A stretch of DNA of 63,775 nt, the filler included, from Vannella sp. (taxonomy: Eukaryota): NCBI GenBank assembly GCA_023345925.1. It is 6 parts of 6 records of this genome, joined end to end, with 100 filler letters (N's around TTAATTAATTAA, not from the genome) between each part and the next. Parts side by side here need not be neighbours in the genome. Positions count along the whole stretch, not along the records: positions 55,172 to 63,775 come from JAJQQN010001180.1; 5 more parts are not named here. One strand, 5' to 3'. Below the pieces are notes generated by a model, which made no database searches, was not told where the DNA came from, and was given only the letters and a program-made list of their open reading frames with translations. Of the stretch, positions 3,261 through 60,049 are shown one piece after another (the first letter of the stretch is position 1; the number at the start of each line of letters is the position of its first letter). A program made the translations under genes and the position numbers.

Positions 3261-3475
3261 GGCAGAGCAGCGAGAGAAAAAAGGGTTCGGGAGAGAAACC
3301 GCAACGAAAATTTCCGTAATTATTCCAAGTCCACCCAACATCAAAAGAATGAAATCAGCGATGTTTAGTAGCCAAAAAATTCTTTCTGAGGCGATGGAAT
3401 CAGAACCAGATCACTTCCCAGCTTTTTTTGTTTGGTTCCCTTTGCTGCTCATTCTTTCTCTTCCCTGCCCGAAAC

Positions 3476-6400
3476 ATGAGCCCAACCCCGGACCCAGGAA
3501 AACAAAAAACAAGGAAGATACGGAATGTGCATGCGTATGTGGTAGGCAAACGATCTATCTCACTCCACGAGGCAGCATCAGAAGGAAACCTATCTCTCCT
3601 CCAGGGCATCCTCTCTGCACTTGATGAGGATCGCCAGTTCCTCATCAATGAGAAGTGTGGAAAGGGACTTACACCCCTTCATTATTCCTGCATATCAGGA
3701 TCTCTGGAGTGCGTGAAGCATCTCACAGAAAGGAATGCCGACCACTCTGCTGTCAACTTGAAGGGGAGGACCGCCTTCCACCTTGCCATTCAGCATGGAA
3801 GTATTGAGATCGTCAACTATTTGGTGCAATGCAATGAGAAGCTCAAGCTCCCTCTTCAATTGGACGACCGCAAAGGGCTCCTTCCCATCCATTTTGCAGC
3901 GAAGAGCGGTTGCTTGAAAGTGTACAACCTCATCCATGACTTGGATCCAAGCCAATGCACCAAAACCACTCGTGATGGACAGAACGTCATTCATCTTGCG
4001 TGTGAGAAGGGACACTTTGCCCTTGTTCAGCAGCTTCTTGAGAGTTGGGATGTTCAGTATCAGAACCCGCCAATACCCTCACAGAGTTCTACCGATGCAG
4101 GAAATACCCTTAATGCAACTCGAGAGTCTCCATACAAGTATCCCCAGAACCGTCCTGACTCACGCGGCAACAGTCTGCTCCACTTCGCTGCCTTTAGTGG
4201 CAACCTGGAACTCTACACCTTTATTGAGAAACACCGCGAGTCAGCTTCACTCCTTACCAACCGAAACAGCTATGGACATGTCCCAATATTCGAAGCAGCC
4301 ATCTCGGGAAACCTGGAACTGATTAAGTATATTCTTGAGCAGCACCCTGAAGCCGCAAACGAGATTTCAAACGAAGGTAGTACACCTCTCTTTGCATCTT
4401 TGAGAGGTGGTGCTGAGCTTGAAGTGGTCAAACACCTCTTTTCCTTACAAATCAATCATCATCACGTGGACGAAGCAGGGAGGAATATGTTTCACCATGC
4501 GGCCAGTGGCTCCACCGTTTCTGTTCTTAGCTATCTGGAAAAGGAGGTGGAGAAAAGCTCCGAGATGATGACTTCTCTGACAGGCGATAACCAGAGTATT
4601 CTGCATTTCGCGATGGAATCCTCTGACGACACCTTGATTCGCTGGCTATTAGAAGACTCTCCCTGTTCTGAAAGAACAGTCAGCCTGCAAGGGCTTATCT
4701 CCCATGTTGACAATAATTCCTACTCCTTGATTCATGCTGCTTGCCTGACAGGAAACCTCCCAGCTTTGAAGTATCTGATGGAGAAACATAGGAACACCTT
4801 CAATTTGACTAGAGACATGGAACAAGTGCCTTACTCTTGCCTTGTCCAACAGCACAACATTCATATCCTACAATACCTCTTAGCAATTGAAGAGATCCGC
4901 GAAAGTAGGAGCCACAAGGCACTCATTCACAATCTTGCATCATGCCGCGATGAAGAATACTTCCGTCAAACGGTCCATGATCTGAAGCTCGATATCAATG
5001 AGCGGGATAGCAGAGGATTTATTGCAGCCCATTTCGCTGCTCTTAATGGCAACTATCTTGTTCTCAAGGTACTACTAGATGAGCCCGGTGCAAATGTAGC
5101 TGCTAAGTCAGCGGACGGGTTTACTCTTCTTCATTGCGCCTCTGAGGGCGGCAATCTTTCCATTGTCAAGGACCTTGTGGAGAAACACTTTCCCCAAAAT
5201 CTCGACTGTCCCTTAGAAGACGGTACTACACCACTGGCCCTGGCTGTCAAGGAGTGCAATAGCGATGTTGTGGAATATTTGATCAAGAATGGAGCCGATG
5301 TGAACGCTGTGACCGCCAATCAGGTCTCTGTACTTCATCTTGCTTGTGCAAATGGATACACACACCCTTGGATAAGAGTGGTAAGTGCTTTCTCTCATTT
5401 AAGATGTGTCATATACTAACAATCTGGCTGAGTAGAAGGCAATTATTGAGGAGTTGTTGCATGCAGGAGCTTGGAGGAGTCTTCGAGTCGAAGCGACATG
5501 GGGAGGCGGCAGCTCTGATACTCCTTTTGAATTTGCTTCAAACAGATTGATCTGCAACTTGCTTGCAAAGCACGATCCCTCCTTGGAAGTAGAAAAGATC
5601 TTTATTCCAAGATCTTCTATTTCCAAGTACATCACGTCAGTTCTTCACCAGTTGCTTTGCTCTGTATCTAATTGTTTTGAGTTTAGAGATGACTATAGTT
5701 GCGGGCAAGGCGGATACTCTCGAGTCTATAAAGGCTACTTGCATGGCACTCCTGTGGCTATCAAGTGCCTCACGCTGGAGTCACCCGATCAAGAGTATCT
5801 CTTCAGACTGGAAGTGGGGATCATGTCTTTGATTCGTCATCCTAACATCTGCGCGTTGATGGGTGCATCAATTGAGAAGGACTCGTACTGTCTGATTATG
5901 GAGTACATTCCCAAAACGTTGGAATCTGTCATTGACGCCTTGGATTTGGATTTCACCTCACTCCTCAATTATGCGATTGATACATCTCGAGGCATGCTTT
6001 GGCTGCACAAACAGTAAGCTCCTCATTCTTAACTTCTGCATTATCTCACCACATTTAAAGGCAACCAGTTATCCTCCACCGGGACCTCAAAGCAGACAAC
6101 GTCCTCATTGATAATGGACGAGCAAAAGTGTCTGACTTTGGTCTTTCAGCTCTATTTGATCCATTGACAAAACAATTGGTTGTGAGAAAGAATGTCAAAC
6201 TCTACCATAGAACAGCTCCCGAGGAAGTGCGAAAGAGGCAAGAGTACTCTATCCAATCTGACATCTATTCATTTGGTTGCTGCTTGTTTCACATGTATAC
6301 AATGGAGCCCTTTGATAACCAGAAGTCTCTGAGCCAATCATCCAAACTCAAAGAAGTTATCCAGAGGTGCACCGCTTGGTTTCCTAATGTTCGATACCAA

Positions 6401-6589
6401 TCTTTTGAAGAGATTCTCGACATTCTCAACGAAATAGTGGCCAATCCAGCCCTCTTCGAGTCAGAAAGTCGCACGAGAGACTCTTGTGAAGTCCTTGTCC
6501 CCCGACTCAAGGAAGAAAGTTCTGCAACCCCCAAACCGGGCGAATGCAATGATGAACAGAACAATCATGGTTATACCACCAATTTCTGA
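3476..6589 (+). CDS. Ankyrin-repeat protein kinase (many ANK repeats plus TKL-like kinase domain), several introns
   Basis: Repeated GxTPLHxA-type motifs; kinase motifs GQGGYSRVY, VAIK, HRDLKADNVL (~6077), DFG. Confidence 0.9.
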
Positions 6590-15303: not shown

Positions 15304-18300
15304 TCAGTCATTTGCTTCCTCATCAGAGAATAAAGGGAACTCACCTTCCATACTGGTCCGGCTTTTGGAGTGGCGACGATAATACACTTCAATGCAGAGC
15401 ACCCCAATTGCAACATACACAACAGCAGCCGCCACAAGTCCTAAAGATATCCAGCTAATCGTGCTGTTTCGGGCTTGAGACTCACAAGGATTCCCGTTCT
15501 CCAGGTTTCCGAGCAGAAGCAAAGCAAAGTTGGTCAGATGGTCGGTTTGGCCGCAGACAAAACGGTTCTTCTTGTTTTCCGGACACGTGTCTTCGCATTT
15601 CCACTCGCCGTTGGCCTCGTCGAGGTAGCCCAGGCAAACGTTGTCCTCTTTCTTTGTTGTGTTCAGTCGAGGGAGACAGATTGTCAGTGGAGAGTCCAGG
15701 ATGGTGATCAGATTGCCTTGGGAATCGACCAAGGTGATGTTCAATATGATGCTGCCCAATGGTCCAGGATTGGGACTGCTTCCGTATTCAATGGTCAGAG
15801 TTGTGTTCAATTGGTCACTTAACCCTGCTGGGACGAACAGAATAGCTGTCACTTCGCCGCCAGAGTTGAGGAGTTCCACTCGCCCTGGAGAAGTTTGGTT
15901 GAGCAGATAAATTGAGGTTTGAAGGATTTGGGGGCTTTCTGGTGGTACCATCGTCCGAGTGGCACTGAAAGTTGCCACAACACTTGCTGTGCCAAATTGG
16001 GAAGTGGAACGCAGAGATTCCGAAGCAGAGAAAGAAACCAGAATGGCCCTCGATGCCCTTGCAGATGCGGACTTGCTGGTAGAGGGCGGTAATTCGGGAG
16101 GTGTCGATGAAAAGGAAGAAGAGGAACTTGATCTACTTGAGATAGGGAAGCTGGAGAGAGCTGAAGGCCCAATCGTATTGAATGGAATCGAAGTCTCACT
16201 GAGAGTGACACTTGGAGACGCCAAAGGCAAACTCTGGAATGTGCTTTGTGAAGAACTGGCGCTGAGGAATGGAGGACTGGGTGTCTGACTACCACTGAAG
16301 GATGAGAAAGGGGTTGGAATCTCAGTTGGAGAAAGATTCTGACTACCAAACGTCAAAGGGCTACCACTGATAGAGGCAGAACTTGTGAAGGAGCTCTCAC
16401 TGGAGGAAGGTGACGAGCTTGTGGAAGAACTCTCACTGAAAGGCAAAGAAGGTGGAGAACTCATGGAGAATCTCACATTGAAGGACAAGGAAACAGATAA
16501 ACTTGTGGATGAGCTCCCGCTTACTGACGGAGAAGTCGTTGAGGTGTCACTGAAAGGCGCGTTGGGTGACGCACTTACGGAGGAGCTCTCACTGAAGGAC
16601 AAGAAAGTGGACGAACTTATGGAGGGTGACGAGCTTGGAGAGGCGCTCCCACTTACCGATGGAGAATGCGATGGGTTTGTAGAAGGGCTCTCACCAGAGG
16701 ATAGAGAAGGTGACGAGCTTGTGGAAGAGCTCTCACTAACAGACGAGGAGGGCTGTGACCTTGTGGAGGAGCTCTTGCTGGGTGACAAAGAAGGTAATGA
16801 GCTCGTGGAAGAACTCTCACTAGAAGACAAGGAGGGCGACGAGCTTGTGGATGAACTCTCAGTGGTGAACAGAGAGGGCGACAAGCTTGCGAAAGGACTC
16901 TCAGTGGTGGACAGAGAGGGTGACGAGCTCTCAGTGATGGAAATGGAAGAGGAAGGGCTCTCACTTTGCGAGAGACTACCGCTTGGTGATGGCGTGAAGC
17001 TGACACTTAGTGAAGAGCTTTCAGAAGAACTCTCAGTGGTGGACAGAGAGGGTGACGAGCTCTCAGTGATGGTAATGGAAGAGGAAGGACTCTCACTTTG
17101 TGAGAGACTCCCGCTTGGTGATGGCGTGTAGCTGACACTTAGTGAAGAGCTGCCGCTCATCGATGGAGAGGGAGAAAGGCTTTCCGATGCTGAAAGACTC
17201 GGCGGATCATTCGAGCCCAATGGGCAGCCCCCCACTGTGTCGCTGCAAGTGGCACCCGTGTATCCTGGTGGTAAAGTGGAACAGTTGAATACCTGATTAA
17301 AGAGGTTAATCGAAGCGCCGTTGGGAGAGGGATCCGGCAAGTTCCCGCAAAGTGCGTTGTAATTCAAATTCACACTTGAAAGAGACGTCAAATGGCCCCA
17401 GAGAGGAAGGCTCCCATTGATTTGGTTGTCGTACAAGTTACTTGCCCAAAGGCAGTTAGTCCATTCATTCTGTCGAAGCGTTTGGACTGAACTTACATGG
17501 TCCTTATCGAGGTTAGATTGAACCAATTCGGAAGGGTGCCTGTAATCTGGTTGTCTGGTAGAGAGCTGCCCGCTTATCAGTATTGTTCTTCCGGGAGTGG
17601 CATGATTCGTACAGCAACTCCAGTGCAGAGAGATAAGACCATTCAGGGAGGGTCCCATTGATCTGGTTGCTATCAAAATACCTTTTCCTAGTTAATCCTT
17701 CCTGTTTGGTTCTATGACAGACTCACAAAAACCTCAGAGCAGTCAGATTCTGCCACGGAGGAAGGCTTGCCTTGATCTTGTTTGATCGAATAACCCTGTC
17801 CCTAATCAGAACACCCTCTGAAGGCATCACAACTTGACCTACACAATGAAGAGGTTGGTTAGCGAGTTCCATTGTGGGAGCGGCCCTGTAATGTTATTGG
17901 ATGACATGGTCCTGCCCCTTTCACTTAGAAATGTCCACTCAGAGGGAAGAAAGAGGCACTCACAGCTGTCTCAATGGAGTCATGTGAGACCATTCAGGTA
18001 TGGCTCCTTCGATCCCATTCCTGTCCAGAGCCCTGATTCATCCTCATTAATTCAATTCAATTCAATGAACTCTCATCTCCTTACAGTGTGGTAAGCAAGG
18101 TGAGGGTGGGCCACTGGGGGAGAGATCCTGTGATTTGGTTGACAGATAGATCCCTAAGGAAGTGGAAGGCCAGCCAGAATGAGGACCGGATTGGATGTTG
18201 GTCATTAGTGAATGACTGCCTTACATGAAAAGTAGTGCAGTTAGGTTAGACCATTCTGGTAGGCTGCCGCTGATAGCATTATCGGTGAGCGATCTGCCAA

Positions 18301-19747
18301 TCCAATTCCCACTGCATTAGAACGATGAACCATGTTTGAAGGCAATTCTCACGCACAAAGATGAAAGTTCTCCTTGCGCATTCCATTGGGGAAGAGTTCC
18401 GTTGAGCTGATTCTTCCCAATAAATCTGCCATCCAAGTTACATAAGAAGTGGCCGGAGATGCTCCCTTACATGGACTGAAGCTTTGTCAGAGTCTGCCAT
18501 TCCGGAATAGTTCCCTGAATCAGGTTGGTACTAAGTTGACTGCCCAATGTTGTCAACGCGCACGCACTAAACAGGATGTCAAGGCAAACTCACATGTTTT
18601 TCAGTATCGTAAGATTCGTCCAGTTTGGAAGAGTTCCAGTGATATTGTTGGCCTGCAGATTCCTGATGAGGAAAGAGAGTTAGGTCCAGCCATATGTGAT
18701 GCAACTCCAGCCCTTTAAGGTGTGAGTACTGACATTGTGGTTAAGAGAGTCAGATGTGGCCACTGCGGCAGAGTGCCGTTGATCTGGTTATCGCTCAAAG
18801 ATCTAATTCGTGTCAAAGTAGCCTCTAAGCCAGTAGCAAGCTTCTACTCACAAAGTGGAGAGACCTTGGAGACCATTCCAATCAGGAAGAGGGCCAGTGA
18901 TCACGTTATCACTCAAAACTCTGTTGCAAATGAGCGTTCCTCCAAAGCTATGTCTTAAGACGTACAGGAAGGAGAGATTGGTCATATTCGCCCACTCTGG
19001 GAGGGTGCCAGTGATCTTGTTGGTCATTAAATCCCTGTTTGTCCGGGTTTAACGCTTCTTCTTAGCATCAGGAGTATCACTCACATGTAGGACATCGCTG
19101 TAAGATGGTTCCATTCAGGAAGGGTCCCATTGATCGAGTTGTGATCCAAAAGGCTGTTCCATTCCAAAGGTTCCTATCAGATCACTTGTGCACCCTCCTG
19201 TCACCCAAACTCACATTTGAGTCAAGTCTTTGAGGTTGTACCAGTTTGGTAAGCTTCCAGTGAACGCGTTGTTGCGTAAGAACCTGCCAGAAGGTGATGA
19301 ATGAGGATCGGCCGTACTCTTTCGCCTCGAGAGAGTCGACTTACATCATCTTGATAGAGGTCAGATTGCCCCATTCTGGGAGTGTGCCAGAGATCTGGTT
19401 GAATCGAAGGTCCCTGAGGAAAGGGGCGAAGAGGGTCAGTAGAGAGGGGGGCGTCGATCTTGTCTCACTCACAGTACAGTCAGCTGGGGTAGTTGCAGGT
19501 CAGAAAGAGTCCCTGTCAAGTTGTTGTTTGGTAGAGAGAGTGATCCAACGGAGAAATCGCTGTTGAAGCCAATGCAGGTCACACCAGCCCACGTACAAGG
19601 GTCCGCAGACAGGTTCCAGTTGCTGGGGAACCAGGAGCTTCCCCCCGTGGAGTTGTAAAACTCCTCCAGAGACTCCCTCTCACTCATCAGCAGACAGTTG
19701 CCCCACATCACCAGCGAGAGAACGAACACGAGACACCCAAAAGACAT
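15304..19747 (-). CDS. Surface receptor: signal peptide, LRRNT, ~18 LRRs, Ser-rich stalk, GPS/GAIN motif, single TM; ~1171 aa, 18 exons
   Basis: Exon 1 19747-19473 (FYNSTGG..W..DPCTWAGVTC); 16 exons of 69 nt; last exon 17440-15304 with CLGYLDE..WKCED..TDHLTNFALLL then a TM helix; exon total 3516 nt is in frame. Confidence 0.9.
16897..17150. repeat. Tandem duplication with 132-nt period (44 aa) plus shorter degenerate Ser-rich repeats in the stalk
   Basis: ACTCTCAGTGGTGGACAGAGAGGGTGACGAGC... begins at both 16897 and 17029. Confidence 0.85.
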
Positions 19748-30271: not shown

Positions 30272-33200
30272 CTACGAGGTTGGGCTAGTGTTGCTTTGGA
30301 GTTTGATGTTTTTGAGGTTTTGAGATCTTCGAACGCTCTTCACCCAGAAGACTAACTCGTTGATAGCGACAGCGATGATGACGATGAGGATGGCGAATGC
30401 GATGAAGGCAATGGAAAGATAGGATAGGAAATAGGATCTTTCTTCCTTGCAGCCTCCGTTTGCACTTGCGCTGTTGTCTCCCCCATTTAGCAGAAGAGCA
30501 AACGATGTGAGATGATCCGTTGTGCCACAGAAGCTGGTTCCGTTCTTCTTCAGGCAGTTGTCTTGACAAAGCCATTTGTCCTTTCTCGTATCAAAGAACC
30601 CTAAACATGCCTTGACCCCTTTTCTGTGAGAACCCGCACTTTTGCTTCATCCACCCTATGATTCTCACCTTTGAACCGTCAACATTGCTGGATTGCTCCA
30701 GGCAGATGGTAATTTGAGAGCTCAGTTGGGTTGTGTTGTCTCCTGAGGGACTTTGAATCGTAATGTCGACCAGAACTTGGCCAAGAGTGCCTCCATTCAC
30801 TTGGTTGTTGGAACCTTGAACAAAAGTGGCAAGAAGCGAACCCTCTGACACTTGTCTGGGAACCAAGATAGTTCCAAGTTGCTGTCCTTCCGCATTCAAA
30901 GATACGACATCAATGGAGCTGGTCAGATTGTAAAACAGAGAGTCGCTCACACAATTACCCTGTCGACAAATGTCACTTGCAGCTGTTGGAAGGAAACTGG
31001 GACTTCGAACAGCTATCGGAGAGGGAGAGAACTGTCCCAAAAATGACTGAGAAGGTGGCGGTGATGGAGATGTGGATCCTGAGAATTGTTCTTCGCTCTT
31101 AGAAGGTGAAATAGAGAGCGGGATAGGACTCATGGAGGGAGAGACGGAGTCTGGTTCCACAGAGTTTGAAATGATGGATGCCTGGAAGCTTTGAGAGGGG
31201 GAAAGCGATGAAGAAGGTAGGGCACTCTCGAAAGGCGGGACCGAGGGGGAAGACTCAGGGCTATTAGATGCACTCTCTGACACAGAGGGCAAAATCAGAG
31301 ACAATGTGGCGGATGGAGAATTGATGCTGACAAACGTGCGACTAAATGATGGAGACTGCAAGGGAGAAGCTGCCTCAGAGACAGATATCCCGCTGGAGAC
31401 AGAAAATTTGGCGGAGTTACTGGGACTTCTGGAATTGTTTGCTGGAACGCTAGAAATTGAAATGTTGGCCGAAGGATTGGCACTACTGGTTTCTGTTTGG
31501 CTTTGACTTGGGGATGGAGAGGAACTTGTCGTCAGTGATGGAGAAGAACTTGTCGTCAGTGATGAAGAGGGAGCAGAAGAGGGCAGAGCAACGGAAGACG
31601 AGTTGGCATTGAATGTAATTGAACTATTACTATGGTATGATCCCAGTGTGATGGATACGGAGCAACTCAGAGTGCCATTAATGGTTCCTGCATCAATACA
31701 TAATTGGTTTTCGGAATTCACCCAAAATCTGCTTGGACACTGAACCACGGAGGCGGGGGGAGATGAAGGGCAAATACTAATTCCAATGGGAGCTGAACAA
31801 CATGGGCTAGAAGTGTCAGCGCAAGAGACATTCTGATTAGGCTCTGATAGGAAGTGTGCTCTCAGCTCATTCGTTGAGTTCAGAGAAGTCTGGATTTTGA
31901 TCCCAAAGAGATGACTTGGAGAATTTCTGCTTTGAGTCAGGAAGCATTCAGTTCCAGGAGGAAAGAAACTATCCGTTTTGAGGGGAGAATCTGAAGAGAT
32001 CAAGACGAACGAATCTCCAACATTTGGTATAAATGTTGGATCCACGAAGATGTCCAAGGGAGTCAAATCAGTTCCAATGAGGAACTGGGCCACCTTGAGA
32101 GTGGAATAAAAGTTCTTGTTTTCTAAATGGAAGGTGAGGCCCCCACTACTGCAGTTAAGAGTGCCCTCAATTGTGAGGGGAGAGGTTTCTAATGCACCCT
32201 GATCGTCAAAATGAACTGGCGAAGGCGTTAATCTTCCAATGTTCGTGATTGTCAAGTTCTTGACAAAACGGGCCGTGCCTATAAGATCAGTACCGCAAAT
32301 GAATGAATTATGCAATACTGTCCCATTAATTATGTGATTGGGGGACTCAAAAATCGCAGGCGCATCTATCGTAGTGTTCTTGGAGATTCTAGTTCCTCCA
32401 TTCAAGACTAATCTACTTGAGGATCGATAAAGAGTTGAAGGAAGCCCAATTTGGCGCCAGCAAATGATAGAAACATCTTGCTGATCCTTATTATACAGTG
32501 ACACTGAGGCAGCGGTGTGGTTTTGCAAAACCAGGGACTCCGCAAATATCTTTACCGTCACTAACATGTCCGCCGTTATCGTCAGATCCAGCGCGGATTG
32601 GACGAACGGGATTTTAATGATAATGGCTTTGAGTCCAACATTTGTAATCATGTTTCGCAAACTGGGTTGCACCTGAAGCGAGTTTGTGGCGGACATTGTA
32701 AGAGGTTTCGAGCAAATCACTTCGATTGGATGCTCGCTGATAAATGTGATGTTCTCCGCTTCATAAGAACCGCAAATTTCGAGATAAGATGAGAAAGAGG
32801 TCAGATTAAAGCCGAAGCCCTGGATTTCAGATAGAACTATAGATGAGTTTTGCAAGGAGATATGGAAGCTTCCTCTCATAGTCAGTTTCGATTCAAAGTC
32901 CAAAAATGAATCGCTTCCCACGATCGAAAGTGGCTGATTTAGCTCAGCGTCGGTGAGGAAAGTAAGATTCGAACGGTAAAGACTAATCTCACCACAGTAC
33001 ACTTGAATGGCATTTGTTGACGTCAGAGATATCTTTGATTGGTTCCTAGCAGGTAGGAATGATAGCAGGGAGGTATTAAATACAATCTCGCTGGCTTCAA
33101 TGAAGAGAACGTCCGCCATAACTTGAAGCGTTGAGCCAGAAAACAGAATTTTGTCCGATTCACCCAATGTTTGGAGAGCCATGAAGTGCGCATTGTCAAG

Positions 33201-33361
33201 AGTAATATTGCCACTGAGCTCAATGGCAACTGGGCCTTTTCCATAGACATTGAGAATTGTGTTCAGGCCCGCTTTTATAGAGGCAATCCTCACTCCTGCA
33301 CCTTGGGTAGAAGTTCCTGTAACAGTGATTAAAGAAGATGTCGGAGTTTCAAACATAACAT
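30272..33361 (-). CDS. 5'-truncated surface protein: beta-helix/passenger-like region, Ser-rich stalk, GPS motif, single TM
   Basis: 921-aa ORF plus a phase-0 intron leading to ACLGFFD..WLCQD..CGTTDHLTSFALLL, a TM helix and TAG at 30272; truncated at contig end. Confidence 0.8.
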
Positions 33362-33716
33362 NNNNNNNNNNNNNNNNNNNNNNNNNNNNNNNNNNNNNNN
33401 NNNNNTTAATTAATTAANNNNNNNNNNNNNNNNNNNNNNNNNNNNNNNNNNNNNNNNNNNNCAAGAAGGAAGGATTCATCTCCCTTTCAGGTTGAATGAC
33501 GACTGCCTGAAGGCCACTAACGGAAAGTCCTCGTTTTCGCAGCTCATCCCTAGTCCAGGAATCGAGACCCGAACTGGTCAATGGGAGCTTGCTGGTTCCC
33601 AAAAGTATCTTCATACGGTCCATGTTCTCGTCGTTTCTTTTCGGACAAATGGCTCAGCATCTTCTTTGTACTTTGACATCCCCATCATGCATATCATTAA
33701 GGAAGTGGCCACACAG

Positions 33717-54917: not shown

Positions 54918-55445
54918 TAGCAAAGTGATCCAAAAAGATCAAACCCAATTAATCCCCCGAGAGAAACTGAGAAAATTCCCGGAACCACCCAAAAACCCCC
55001 TCAATCAATAGAATCCCAATTGCCGTGCCATGTTCGAAATTATTTCTCACGTGCCCTTCGACTGAAAGCGGNNNNNNNNNNNNNNNNNNNNNNNNNNNNN
55101 NNNNNNNNNNNNNNNTTAATTAATTAANNNNNNNNNNNNNNNNNNNNNNNNNNNNNNNNNNNNNNNNNNNNTCAAAGAGTTCGAGTCGCAAACAATCTGA
55201 GCGAGCCAAGCACAGACTCTTTTTCTAATCTGTGAAAATGGGACATTCACTTTGTCGGCATCTGCCCTTCTGAAGTCAAGACGCTCGCAAAGCGATTCCA
55301 CGTGCACACGTGCCAAAGGTTGGCCGGAGATGACCCTTCACATCAGCACACGGCTACTCCAAACATCTCTTTCTCCCCAGGTATATCTGACATTCGCACT
55401 GTTGAGGAGTGTATTTGCTCAAAGGAAGAAGGCGTTCATGGCTTC

Positions 55446-56811
55446 CTACTGAGTGACATCGTGCATGGCAGTGGCAAGGTACTGGACGTTGGAGGAGTTG
55501 AGCCCAGCCACGCTAACGCGCCCATTGCGGGTCATGTAAATGTGATACTCATTGCGAAGAGTGTCCACCTGTTCGGGAGTCAGTCCAGTGAAGCAGAACA
55601 TGCCAATCTGGTTGATGATGTGGCTCCAGTCCCGGGTAGAGCCAGCATCCTTGAGGCTCTGCACCAAAGTAGAACGCATCTCAATGATACGACCGGACAT
55701 GTCCTTCACCTCACCCAACCACTGCTCCTTGAGCACGCTATCATTCAGAATCTCCGAAACGATACGCGCACCAAAGATGGGTGGGTTGGAGTACATGGGA
55801 CGGATGAGGGAGTTCAATTGACTGCGCACAATGACTGCCTGTCTCTCGCTCTCGGTAACGAACGTCACAGCGCCCACGCGCTCCCCGTACAGTCCAAAGT
55901 TCTTTGCAAAGGACTGGCAGACACCAATGAGGTGGCCGTCTTGCACGAACTTGCGAACAGCGTAGGCGTCCTTCTGACAGTCGCCTGAGGCGAAGCCTTG
56001 GTAGGCGAGGTCGAACAAGGCAAAGTGCTCCTTGTCCTTAGTGAGCTGAGAGAGCTCGTCCCACTGCTCTGGAGTAGGGTCTACTCCTGTGGGGTTGTGA
56101 GCACACGCGTGGTAGAGGATAATGGAGCCAGCAGGGGCGTCCTTGATGTCAGTCTTGAGGCCTTCAAAGTCCAGGCCACAAGTGTTGGCATTGTAGTAGC
56201 GATAGTTGCGTACTTGAAGGCCAGCGTCCTTGAAGAGGGGAATGTGGTTAGCCCACGTGGGGGAAGGCAAGTAAACCGCTGCGTCCGGTTGGAAACGAGC
56301 GAGGAACTCTCCTGCAACACGTAGTGCTCCAGTTCCACTGATGGCTTGCGCAGTGACGTTCTAAAGGGACGAGGTGAGGACTCGCCAATGGGAGGACAAC
56401 GAGGGTCACGCACTCGCTTTGACGCAAGGACTTCCGATTCAGCTCCAAAGGCGAGTTCAGCAGACACTTTGATCAGTTGAGGGACTCCGCCAATGCCAGC
56501 GTACTCATGGTCCATCTTGTAGATGCGCTCAGAGGCCTGTGGGCAGTCAGAAAGCCAGTTAGACCACAAGGAAAGCGGAATAAAGCGTATCTTACAGTCT
56601 GAACACACTTGAGGATGTAGGGCTTACCCTTGTCGTCACGGTAAGCACCAACACCAAGGCTGACCTTCCGAGGATCCGTATCAGCCACGAAAGCCTGAGT
56701 CAGCCCCAGAATGGGATCAGCTGGAGCTTCCTCCAAATGATTCCAAGCGTTAAACGCCATAGCACGGCGAAGAACCGTCGAGGGAACACAACGAGAGACA
56801 GAGCGAAGCAT
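55446..56811 (-). CDS. GOT2: Mitochondrial aspartate aminotransferase, 2 introns
   Basis: Presequence, [37 protein letters not shown]. Confidence 0.96.
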
Positions 56812-56904
56812 GTTCCAAAGCGGAGGCGGAGAGCAACTGACCGCAAAGCACTTCTTTCTTGTTATCACAAAAAAAAGGGCGAAAGGATAGAAATTGGCAT
56901 TTTA

Positions 56905-58649
56905 ATGCTTTCTGGAAGGTTTGGTTAGACTGGCTCATTTTTTCACGTCATCTGACCGTCTGGCGCTTGCACACAGGAAGGCTCTCGATTCCCGCAAGCT
57001 ATCCAAAGTGAAGGCCTTCTTGAAGGCTCATCCGGATATGCTCAACGATCCTTGTAACGTGCGTTTCCTTCCTCCGCTTCAGTCTCCTTCGTTCTTTCTT
57101 TCCTCTTTCCTTCCTCCTTGGAAGAGGCGGGAGGGGTGAACGATTGAAATGGAGGGTGCTTATATACTCACTTGATTGGGATGTGCAGTGGGTACGTCGA
57201 AGGTGAAAGGAGAAGGGAAGAGAAGGAGGGAGCTCCTTACGAGACGGGACGCCTTTAGCAAGTAGGTCCCCTCCATGGGAAATCAGAATGATTGATTCAC
57301 CACAGGGAATGGTTTTAGCCTGTGAGTGACTCCACGCAAAGAAGGATCCGTTAAGGGAGCTGAGGAAAGGGGATTTATGTAGAATGTAAGTCACTGGCTT
57401 TGTCCCGGAGTCAGGTTCTTCGCTGATGAGTAATGGTAGATGGTATGTGTCTGAATTGGAATTTTCATGGGTTGATCAAAGGAGCCGTCTGACCGAATCA
57501 CAGAGGGTGAGAAGATGACCCACTCGGAGACCGATGAGAGACGATGACTGACCCACCCAATACGAATCATGCAGACCGTATGAAGTCCATCTCTAATTCT
57601 CCTTAGAACTAACTCGGGACCCTAGTTAGTAGGGAAAAGGCCTTTTCAGGGAACCTGTCTCACCAAAAGTGTCTTTTAGGACGTAGGTTCATCCCCCCTC
57701 TTAAGTGAGAATAGCGCGCATGAAACTCACTGAAATGAAATGCAGAGAGTAAGCCTGACAATGTGCACATTGAAGCGAAGGAGTCTCAAAGGGAAGGGAA
57801 TTTAGTTGGTAAGTGCATGAGCGTTTCCTGTTGTTAAAACTCAACAAAGGACGGGAAAGGATGTGAGGGTTTCTCTTGAAGAAATCCAAAAAACTCAATC
57901 ACCCTTTTTAGGACGTAAGTGGTGGGATTCTCTATTTATTCTCACTGTCCCAAATCCTTTCTTTGCACATTCTCACTTTGCTCAGAACTTCCTCACCTAC
58001 GCCTCTTTCTATGGCCTAAGTGACATAGTCAAGTATTTGCTTTCCCGGCGCACCATTGACGTACACAGCACGGTAAATTTCATCCTTTTTGCGGAGTCTC
58101 GAAGATTGGCATCTCACTGGTTCTTTAGATGGTGAGGAATGAGATCCCTTCAGAAGAAAATAGAGGTTTCTGGTAGTTTGTACTCTCGCAAATTACTGTG
58201 GACCTTCAACGGGTACTTTTCTCACAGCAACAAAACGTTTTAGTGGGTAAGTTTCTGGTGATGATGACGGCTGACTCATCGGTTTGATTAAAGCTGGTGA
58301 GTTGCGAGGAGTGAACAGGAAAAGCGACTCAATCGCAAGAGATATAGACGGCTTTGGATTGGGCTGCTGAGCAAGGGAATGGTCAGGCTATCGAGTTGCT
58401 TGTGGCTGCAAATGGTAGATGCAACAAAGTACGGGTCTGGTTGCTTAAAAGTAGGCCATTCTCACTCAAAAGTAACTTAGGAACGACCCGCCTTCCAAAA
58501 GAAAGTGGATGAATACTTCTTTTACAAATCCCTGGAGCCAGAATCATTCGAACCCATCAAACCCCCAAAAAGGTATGAATGACCCCAATCTCTCATGCTA
58601 AAGGTTAGGAGTTCTTACCCCAATTGATAGCTCTTGCAATGTGTCCTAA
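56905..58649 (+). CDS. Small ankyrin-repeat protein (up to ~141 aa) with two arrays of 3-nt microexons and a C-terminal CaaX-like motif
   Basis: Exons 56905-56918, 56977-57058, 13 x 3 nt (57189-57914), 57986-58072 (NFLTYASFYGLSDIVKYLL), 4 x 3 nt (58129-58296), 58348-58428 (TALDWAAEQGNGQAIELLV), 58481-58572, 58631-58649 (SCNVS*); first exon and last acceptor are least certain. Confidence 0.82.
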
Positions 58650-58915
58650 AATGCAGATGAATGGCGTTGTCGGCTGACTTCCAGAATACATTTCCGATTG
58701 AGCGAGCTGCAGGGCCAAATCTGAAGGTGGCGTTTGACCCGTGACGGTTTTCTTTCTTTTTCGTCGTTCTAACGCCTGGAACGGTCTCTGCTTCTTGTCA
58801 ATAACCCTATGCGGCTGTTAATTAGTTGCACCGCACACAGCTTCCTCAGACTCTATCTCTCGAATGCGCACTACAACAATGCTGTTCTGCTTCTCCGGTA
58901 GCAGTCCAGTGTGCC

Positions 58916-59864
58916 TATGACGGAGTCTCCAGGAACGGAGACGTGTCTCTACTGTGGATTGCCGAAGATGGGAGAGCGGGCTGCAAAGCAGAAAGTAGGG
59001 AGTTAATGAAATTTGGTTGCGGATCGACCGGCGGCGTGGTTCATTCCGAATGAGGGAAGATGCGCGCGAGAAGACTCCCTCAAAAAGTGATTCGGACGGC
59101 TTCTGAGTCCGAGTTGTCCAGCAGTGTTCGATCCAAAGACCAGCAGGCCGCCTTCCTGTGGGAACGCCAATGAATGGCTCCTGCCTGCAACCAGCGCACA
59201 AAGGGTTGAGAGTGGGTTGGGTACCGGCGGAATGGTCGCCATCCCCAATTGCCCTTCTCCACCCCATCCCCAGACACCGCCGTTCTCATCGAGAGAGCGT
59301 CCCATTGCAGTTGTCTCCAGAGGAGAAGATACCTCCTTGCGAGTCGACGAGAATCACTCCATAATGAAAGCAAGTCACCTTGATAAGTGGAGGGAAGCCT
59401 TCCACTCGTTGGGGAAGAGAATGCGCCCAAGAGAGACCGGTCCTGCTCGTGCCAGCAGCCACCAAAGCGATATAAGGCAGTTCTTGAACTTGCTGAAAGG
59501 TGGGAGATGAAGAAGAGGACCAAGAGCGACCAGCCTCCCACACACCACCCTCCACATCAAGAACGAGGGAGTGTTCCTCTCCCCAGTCCACCTGAACAGG
59601 CTGAGGACCACTCCAGTCCACCTCCACTGCTTCCAGCTGGTTGTTCGTGTGTCCGAGACCGAGTTGGCCTTGTCTGTTGTACCCAAAAGCCCAAAGGCCT
59701 CCTTCGTGGGAGAGGAGGAGCGTGTAGTCACCAAAGGGCATCCCAATGAAGGGCTAGGAAAGGGAAAGTCAAGAGGATCGAAAGAGATCACTTTTGCGCG
59801 GCAAATGGAGACGGCCACGCTTGGGGAGCTGCTGGTGGGTTGATTCCTTGAGGAGATGAAGCAT
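58916..59864 (-). pseudogene. RCC1-repeat gene, frameshifted and internally deleted
   Basis: RCC1 motifs (FGYNRQGQLG, GEEHSL, AGRSHSL, FGSNTAGQLG) split over frames; break near 59290-59305 has no intron. Confidence 0.65.
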
Positions 59865-60049
59865 GTTGAAGAGAGGGACAGATGTTTCAGCCTCTGGGGG
59901 ATCGTCTGTCTCGAAGTCCGCTGTTCCGAACGACACCGTAAGAGGACAGGAGGTTTGGGAGAGGTTCTTGGAGGTAACAGGGGATGGAAGGGCGGCACAG
60001 GTGCGCAGATGCTTAGAAAGAGGTAGCTGGGTATCTTATTGTCACGGGG

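Follow-up and report, generated by a model that had tools for sequence, protein, structure and literature searches.

Gene Structure and Genomic Setting

The window, i.e., the whole stretch of 63,775 nt that was analyzed, is gene-dense eukaryotic DNA with ~50% GC and short introns. It contains an ankyrin gene whose model is open over 141 codons from the ATG at position 56905 when the exons are joined by their coordinates. The locus spans 1.7 kb, and the model includes 21 introns and 17 candidate exons of one codon each, in the order exon 1, exon 2, thirteen triplets, exon 3, four triplets, exons 4 and 5, and a short last exon. The exons outside the triplet arrays are as follows:

56905..56918, plus strand: exon 1, with the inferred start codon, the sole ATG between the aminotransferase (AAT) start and exon 2
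56977..57058, plus strand: exon 2, an open frame with GT/AG flanks that ends ...LNDPCN; likely the first (capping) ankyrin repeat
57986..58072, plus strand: exon 3, ankyrin repeat 2, 29 codons, NFLTYA...IDVHST; Pfam Ank E 0.016
58348..58428, plus strand: exon 4, ankyrin repeat 3, TALDWAA...; Pfam Ank E 0.014
58481..58572, plus strand: exon 5, a 30-codon tail of no known family
58609..58650, plus strand: last exon, with alternative starts at 58609 (36-nt intron) or 58631 (58-nt intron)

By its sequence, this is an ankyrin-repeat gene: exons 3 and 4 both match Ank, and the repeat period is 33 when all four codons of the downstream array are included. These two Pfam matches stay under the curated cut-off, the queries being pieces of just 27–29 aa. 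Exon 3 has ankyrin chains as its top PDB matches, an Atlas similarity of 0.96 to ankyrin clusters, and 640 matching proteins at E ≤ 0.001 in a search of 1.84 billion proteins; exon 4 matches ankyrin and DARPin chains in the PDB, including 4k5c (LoopDARPin). Exon 2 alone yielded no Pfam Ank match in the profile search, and it is its residue pattern that suggests a capping repeat. The exon 5 tail had no Pfam match and a best Atlas similarity of 0.78. With either acceptor of the last exon, the protein ends six residues further. A last intron of 58 nt (acceptor at 58630), the more typical size, gives the C-terminus CNVS, and one of 36 nt does not; we take CNVS to resemble a CaaX prenylation box (window 58573–58650, plus strand).

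Upstream, an aspartate aminotransferase gene lies head-to-head on the opposite strand, and because the two start codons are only ~95 nt apart (56811–56905), both genes likely share a very short two-way promoter. An RCC1-like gene is found downstream on the minus strand. No NACHT domain was detected in the exons of the ankyrin gene or in the nearby ORFs scanned, and the locus offers no room for one since the aminotransferase starts ~95 nt away on one side and the RCC1-like gene follows on the other.

The aminotransferase, which is of the mitochondrial type, shares 71–79% identity with seven environmental proteins, and among named organisms the best-scoring proteins come from dictyostelids (64–67%). 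In a midpoint-rooted tree of 28 rows, for which 27 of the 120 matches were used, its clade was sister to dictyostelids and Balamuthia (92/87, not a starred branch). Judging by the relatives of this one gene, the host is probably an amoebozoan. Protein P0101, a 193-aa fragment from another public assembly, is 99% identical to the neighboring aminotransferase, which suggests that this organism, or one very close to it, has also been sequenced elsewhere; the fragment falls within one aminotransferase exon and displays no splice junction. The N runs of the window (e.g., 55073–55171) carry the linker TTAATTAATTAA and are artificial joins, so that gene order across them is unreliable; the ankyrin gene contains no N run.

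Elsewhere in the window, an LRR gene at ~17400–19700 (minus strand), which continues into the ORF at 15304–17691 (minus strand), presents one repeat per 69-nt exon with introns of 45–71 nt; 12 such exons were counted by script and more by eye, and a Ser-rich stalk and a membrane segment seem to follow them. This gene could be a modular receptor able to lose entire repeats by in-frame skipping. At 30591–33413 (minus strand), another long ORF, Ser-rich and receptor-like, has an end resembling that of 15304–17691, and no Pfam match was found for either ORF. Another ankyrin protein is encoded at 3353–6589 (plus strand), with 9–10 Pfam stretches and a 688-codon open frame free of microexons; kinase-like ORFs come after it.

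Two Arrays of One-Codon Candidate Exons

An earlier note on this DNA had described four one-codon exons between exons 3 and 4, separated by introns of 45–64 nt. All four triplets and their flanking dinucleotides and motifs were recovered where that note had placed them, and the five introns around them measure 56, 45, 64, 47, and 51 nt, all in phase 0. This region, hereafter array 2, is composed as follows:

58073..58128, plus strand: intron a, 56 nt, GTAAAT...TTTAG, branch-like CTCAC 16 nt before its end
58129..58131, plus strand: candidate exon ATG (Met), TAG-ATG-GTGAGG, splice sites inside the control range
58132..58176, plus strand: intron b, 45 nt, GTGAGG...GGTAG, no clear branch motif
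58177..58179, plus strand: candidate exon TTT (Phe), TAG-TTT-GTACTC, weakest donor, predicted skippable
58180..58243, plus strand: intron c, 64 nt, GTACTC...TTTAG, CTCAC 23 nt before its end
58244..58246, plus strand: candidate exon TGG (Trp), TAG-TGG-GTAAGT, strongest sites in array 2
58247..58293, plus strand: intron d, 47 nt, GTAAGT...TAAAG, CTGAC 23 nt before its end
58294..58296, plus strand: candidate exon CTG (Leu), AAG-CTG-GTGAGT, AAG acceptor and strong donor, predicted skippable
58297..58347, plus strand: intron e, 51 nt, GTGAGT...TATAG, purine-rich

The stretch of 275 nt that separates exons 3 and 4 contains the pattern HAG-n-GTR four times at n = 3 and twice over all other lengths from 0 to 12. 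Four HAG-NNN-GTR sites were reached in 1 of 5000 dinucleotide shuffles, for a pattern that had been loosened after the sites were seen; the stricter YAG-NNN-GTRNG retains only Met and Trp in array 2 (8 of 5000 shuffles). Both strands of the window carry 176 HAG-NNN-GTR sites in total, and these form only two chains of at least three sites at 40- to 75-nt spacing: array 2, with its four sites, and an upstream array of 13 (array 1), both in the ankyrin gene. Likewise, 13 of the 24 strict sites found on both strands of the whole window are located inside 1.1 kb of this gene. No other 3-nt chain and no paralogue family was seen in the window, and array 2 itself has no room for a fifth microexon, its introns being already 45–64 nt long. 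The upstream array comprises the following:

57189..57914, plus strand: array 1, 13 candidate 3-nt exons
57189, 57259, 57319, 57383, 57440, 57504, 57575, plus strand: array 1 sites for W, Q, P, N, M, R, T
57626, 57680, 57746, 57806, 57860, 57912, plus strand: array 1 sites for L, D, R, L, D, D

Array 1 has 14 introns, 13 of them 48–71 nt long and the first one 130 nt. Its 13 sites were reached in none of 5000 shuffles, and 11 of the candidates fit the strict pattern. The two weak ones, 57626 and 57860, divide gaps of 102–103 nt into normal introns, as happened in 334 and 514 of 20,000 shuffles. Every subset of the array is in frame and stop-free, and the subsets altogether specify 5056 distinct peptides.

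In each array, the last codon immediately precedes the residue at the T position of the TPLH motif, which would place both arrays at the tip of the hairpin finger ahead of helix 1. It had been argued that the same architecture at the homologous position of an adjacent repeat speaks strongly against chance; this argument holds up, given the single success in 5000 shuffles, the presence of only two chains in the window, and their location at the same hairpin position. All 17 triplets are likely exons, with splicing read here from the DNA.

Splice-Site Strength Relative to Control Introns

Because training an intron model ab initio from the window gave too much noise, we used 15 introns of the window as controls instead: nine from the LRR gene, two from the aminotransferase (tblastn), and four based on motif continuity, which were picked by eye from the ab initio intron list. 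This set is small and restricted to gaps under 100 nt. Its nine LRR introns lie between the 69-nt one-repeat exons of a single gene, in which 2 of the 11 gaps (177 and 398 nt) were excluded and hide missed exons. The helicase control intron is anchored on its upstream side by a PDB alignment and its downstream piece has no match; the motif is completed across it.

Control introns measured 43–71 nt (median 53), with none above 71 nt, and the 19 array introns were no different in length (p = 0.33). Array acceptors presented fewer pyrimidines before the AG than those of the controls (p = 0.03), and a branch-like motif was found in 11 of the 19 array introns vs. 14 of the 15 controls. The GTAC donor is used by three of the 15 controls and the AAG acceptor by one. 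The Phe donor, at 1.1 bits, scored below all 15 controls (minimum 2.9 bits), and so did the Leu acceptor, at -3.6 bits (minimum -0.3 bits). The Phe site divides a gap of 112 nt into two normal introns, an outcome seen in 636 of 20,000 shuffles (3.2%), and the Leu site does the same with a gap of 101 nt (724 of 20,000 shuffles; 3.6%).

Repeat Length and the Two Hairpin Loops

Natural spacings were taken from the 150 ankyrin proteins closest to exon 3, which provided 809 T-to-T spacings. Periods of 33, 34, and 35 accounted for 188, 467, and 79 of these, and periods of 32 or less for 22; those of 32, 31, 30, and 29 were found nine, three, two, and six times, respectively (20 for 29–32). The 29 codons of exon 3 joined to all four triplets yield a T-to-T period of 33. 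The corresponding D-to-T distance of 9 was found in 10 of 521 natural hairpins, among which the mode was 10 (375 hairpins), distances of 6–8 occurred three times, and distances of at least 17 occurred 20 times. The Trp codon falls where 292 of the 375 natural hairpins carry Gly. The loop with all four codons is near canonical, one residue short of the usual 34, and chemically unusual, and the usual length rule may not apply to it. The 16 possible forms of array 2 scored 46.0–49.0 bits with a two-repeat HMM, which did not prefer the all-four form (46.9 bits).

The earlier note had allowed that inclusion of all four codons would give a near-canonical loop and that array 2 could then be constitutive. 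This appears to be the better reading, a period of 33 being common, though one short of 34. Because only all four codons restore a common repeat length, array 2 looks like a mostly fixed loop. For array 1, the D-to-T count indicates that the hairpin requires three residues, and 13 codons are offered. Since ten codons are surplus to its hairpin, array 1 is the better candidate for true variation.

This surplus could plausibly have arisen by tandem copying of an intron-plus-codon unit. Any such copying would be old, because the 190 intron pairs of the ankyrin gene display short matches only (best local score 20–21) and because the repeat search detected no cassette-length repeat, and no repeat family over 22 nt, in these introns. 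The Arg, Leu, and Asp codons of array 1 recur as synonyms (AGG/AGA, TTA/TTG, and GAC/GAT/GAC), a pattern that may record an old block duplication, to which the intron sequences lend no support.

Predicted RNA Stems over the Phe and Leu Exons

Two RNA stems were predicted within array 2:

58163..58206, plus strand: predicted RNA stem over the Phe exon, 58171-58181/58188-58198 (11 bp) and 58163-58169/58200-58206 (7 bp)
58273..58303, plus strand: predicted RNA stem over the Leu exon, 58273-58285/58291-58303 (13 bp)

The Phe stem is predicted to hide the acceptor, the codon, and the GT, and the Leu stem to pair the acceptor, codon, and donor with the Leu exon's own branch region. Relative to 1500 GC-matched random flanks, masking was as strong in 18 cases for Phe, 21 for Leu, 79 for Trp, and 874 for Met. 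Shuffled flanks singled out 5 of the 17 microexons, including 3 of the 13 in array 1, but a branch motif is inherently complementary to a donor. When the flanks of other real introns were used, with only ~31 distinct flanks per side, Phe (0 of 200) and Leu (1 of 200) were the only masked microexons among the 17, and none of the 13 in array 1 was masked (Fisher p = 0.39). Two of 17 microexons at p < 0.05 correspond to an overall p of 0.21, which is not significant alone, and the stems were noticed post hoc. The region of array 2 had a fold z of -1.8 (6 of 200 shuffles) and the 5' part of the gene one of -0.07. There was no Rfam match at E ≤ 0.1 within 56000–60000.

The two exons with the weakest sites, Phe and Leu, are also the two that are predicted to be hidden, which provides a lead on control. 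Since each combines the weakest splice sites with a position inside a predicted stem, both are likely skippable, and array 2 would then offer at most about four loop variants. It had been suggested earlier that the choices made in array 2 could vary and multiply with those of the other loop. A free or one-of-four choice is disfavored by natural repeat lengths (periods of 29–32 in 20 of 809 spacings vs. 188 for 33), and what survives of this idea is a narrow form in which Phe and Leu, at weak and seemingly masked sites, look skippable.

Searches for Relatives

We found no orthologue of the ankyrin gene with queries that were weak, namely single exons with in-frame intron flank. The word search returned one candidate for exon 3 and 50 for exon 4, none of which scored, and none of 560 pattern matches in metagenome contigs was confirmed as an orthologue. 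The best 150 matches of exon 3 in the 1.84-billion-protein search were all generic multi-repeat ankyrins of at least 266 aa. At the DNA level, a pattern of two 3-nt exons followed by a T[AP]L[HD] exon, which demands TTAG and short introns and thereby misses most arrays, retrieved the locus itself, one viral contig, one metagenome contig, and no prokaryote genome. The viral and metagenome matches were rejected as chance: each sits inside an ordinary open frame or at its end, and neither has an array. A more general three-exon pattern gave five viral loci, four of them with spacings in multiples of 12–60 nt, like tandem repeats.

Comparison with Known Systems

No comparable array in amoebae was found among the papers listed from the full-text literature searched. 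Mutually exclusive clusters of the Dscam type depend on docking/selector pairing or on introns too short for joint inclusion. In contrast, we saw no steric or docking mechanism for such a choice here: the introns are of normal size, and the 13 direct and 20 inverted repeats included no repeated selector. LoopDARPins are designed with a long inserted loop, which array 1 would resemble. Unlike DARPin libraries, this is a natural gene in which variation, if any, would arise by splicing rather than synthesis. It is like DARPins (PMC8229355) and LoopDARPins in being a small ankyrin scaffold whose variable positions would be on the concave face.

Codon-sized exons have a precedent in the NACHT-ANK genes of Tuber melanosporum, which are described, in passages of several papers, as having tens or dozens of alternatively spliced exons of this size (PMC4986451, PMC13449251, PMC3689799, PMC9815663, PMC10197012); the same passages attribute the nank mini-exons to Iotti et al. 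2012 (PMID 22289772). Two of these texts state that 3-bp mini-exons of ANK domains are alternatively spliced (PMC9815663, PMC4986451). Like the nank genes so described, the present gene carries serial codon-sized exons inside an ankyrin recognition domain, with a frame that survives every skip. Unlike them, as far as those passages go, it encodes a stand-alone ANK protein of 141 aa without NACHT or effector domain, its host is a probable amoebozoan and not a fungus, and it has 4 + 13 candidate exons, not dozens, known here from DNA.

Drosophila sowah (FBgn0036302) has annotated exons of 12, 3, 3, 6, and 27 nt in one supplementary table (PMC8042270, Table S4). As in animal sowah/SOWAH, tiny exons, some of a single codon, are found in an ankyrin gene; the fly gene, as tabulated, has fewer exons per loop and these are >1 kb apart, whereas the introns here are of 45–71 nt. 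The fly triplets GGC and TAT (Gly, Tyr) would fit the usual Gly-x before TPLH, whereas the residues of array 2 are non-consensus, with Trp in the Gly position. No SOWAH protein was found by name among the PDB and Atlas matches of exons 3 and 4. The layout has precedent. Within the scope of our searches, what is new is the lineage, the use of a stand-alone scaffold, the pairing of two fingers, and the prediction of stems.

Proposed Mechanism and Alternative Explanations

We propose that the four one-codon exons spell the finger between repeats 2 and 3, that the main mRNA keeps all four, and that Met and Trp are fixed and Phe and Leu are skipped in a minority of transcripts; we assign this reading a probability of roughly 0.5. 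Every short intron would be recognized across its own ends and removed in turn, by intron definition, the efficiency of which is independent of exon length according to PMC8624252. The triplets would be joined one at a time and, given their whole-codon size, any skip would stay in frame; a skip would join a donor to the next-but-one acceptor, about 100–110 nt off. Phe and Leu, with weak sites in local stems, would be absent from some transcripts, and Met and Trp would be retained, giving about four loop variants of array 2 and not sixteen free choices. The main product would display M, F, W, and L at the finger tip, as a hydrophobic binding tip on the concave side, and the minor forms would lack Phe, Leu, or both. 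That the microexon residues would face the concave binding side is judged by their position in the repeat; ankyrin hairpin loops belong to this side, and DARPins bind their partners there (PMC8229355). The 13-codon array in the neighboring finger would supply most of the gene's possible variation, and a small ankyrin protein without effector domain could serve as an adaptor, an inhibitor, or a decoy.

All 17 microexons could instead be constitutive, yielding one 141-aa protein with a normal hydrophobic finger and a 13-residue finger, and with introns that are old and inert, as apparently in animal Sowah. We consider this possible, if rather unlikely: the all-four form is the only one of common repeat length, long fingers occur naturally (a D-to-T distance of at least 17 in 20 of 521 hairpins), the introns are not recent copies of one another (190 pairs), and the Drosophila sowah gene has annotated exons of 12, 3, 3, and 6 nt (PMC8042270, as tabulated), but a purely constitutive gene leaves unexplained the 21 introns in 141 codons, in a window whose long genes run for 800–1175 codons without a stop, as well as the ten spare codons of array 1 and the weak, masked Phe and Leu sites. 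It is less probable still that both arrays are free menus as in Tuber nank, from which any subset could be drawn independently to give as many as 16 x 5056 loop pairs on a single face. Weak, purine-rich acceptors in both arrays, their sharing of the same hairpin in adjacent repeats, the open frame of every subset, and the absence of an HMM penalty on short forms would all agree with such menus. Against them, 15 of the 16 subsets of array 2 give a period no longer than 32, as found in 22 of 809 natural spacings, D-to-T distances of 6–8 are found in just 3 of 521 hairpins, the four codons of array 2 are no surplus, unlike those of array 1, and the protein lacks a NACHT or effector domain that would read out binding.

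Two further explanations reduce the number of exons. The Phe and Leu sites might lie within introns of 112 and 101 nt as chance resemblances or silenced relics, shut by the stems, leaving Met and Trp as the only true exons. The Phe donor and Leu acceptor do fall below all 15 controls, both sites are buried in predicted stems, and the same gene has a 130-nt intron; yet each site would arise by chance at ~3% and both at ~0.1%, the resulting period of 31 is found in 3 of 809 spacings, and in array 1 two sites just as weak divide gaps of a similar kind, which makes this explanation quite improbable. Finally, we find it hardly credible that 58073–58347 is one 275-nt intron with triplets present by chance. 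The triplet exons are indeed read at the DNA level, but shuffles reach them once in 5000, the only two chains of the window are both in the ankyrin gene, no control intron exceeds 71 nt (in a set limited to gaps under 100 nt), and a period of 29 occurs in 6 of 809 spacings.

Our preferred reading leads to a sharp prediction, namely that skipping affects Phe and Leu in a minority of transcripts and spares Met and Trp. A broader and more speculative proposal, which we regard as doubtful, is that the gene is a splice-encoded natural library of ankyrin binders in an amoeba, with a 13-codon menu (up to 5056 peptides) and a tip bearing hairpin-switched Phe and Leu, and that it evolved apart from the truffle NLR and without the NLR module. 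If spliced as read, a 141-codon gene with 21 introns and 17 one-codon exons would test the spliceosome on exons below its own footprint. It would also represent a third lineage, after the truffle NLRs and animal sowah, and one on a stand-alone scaffold, which would point to repeated evolution of such exons at the same structural spot.
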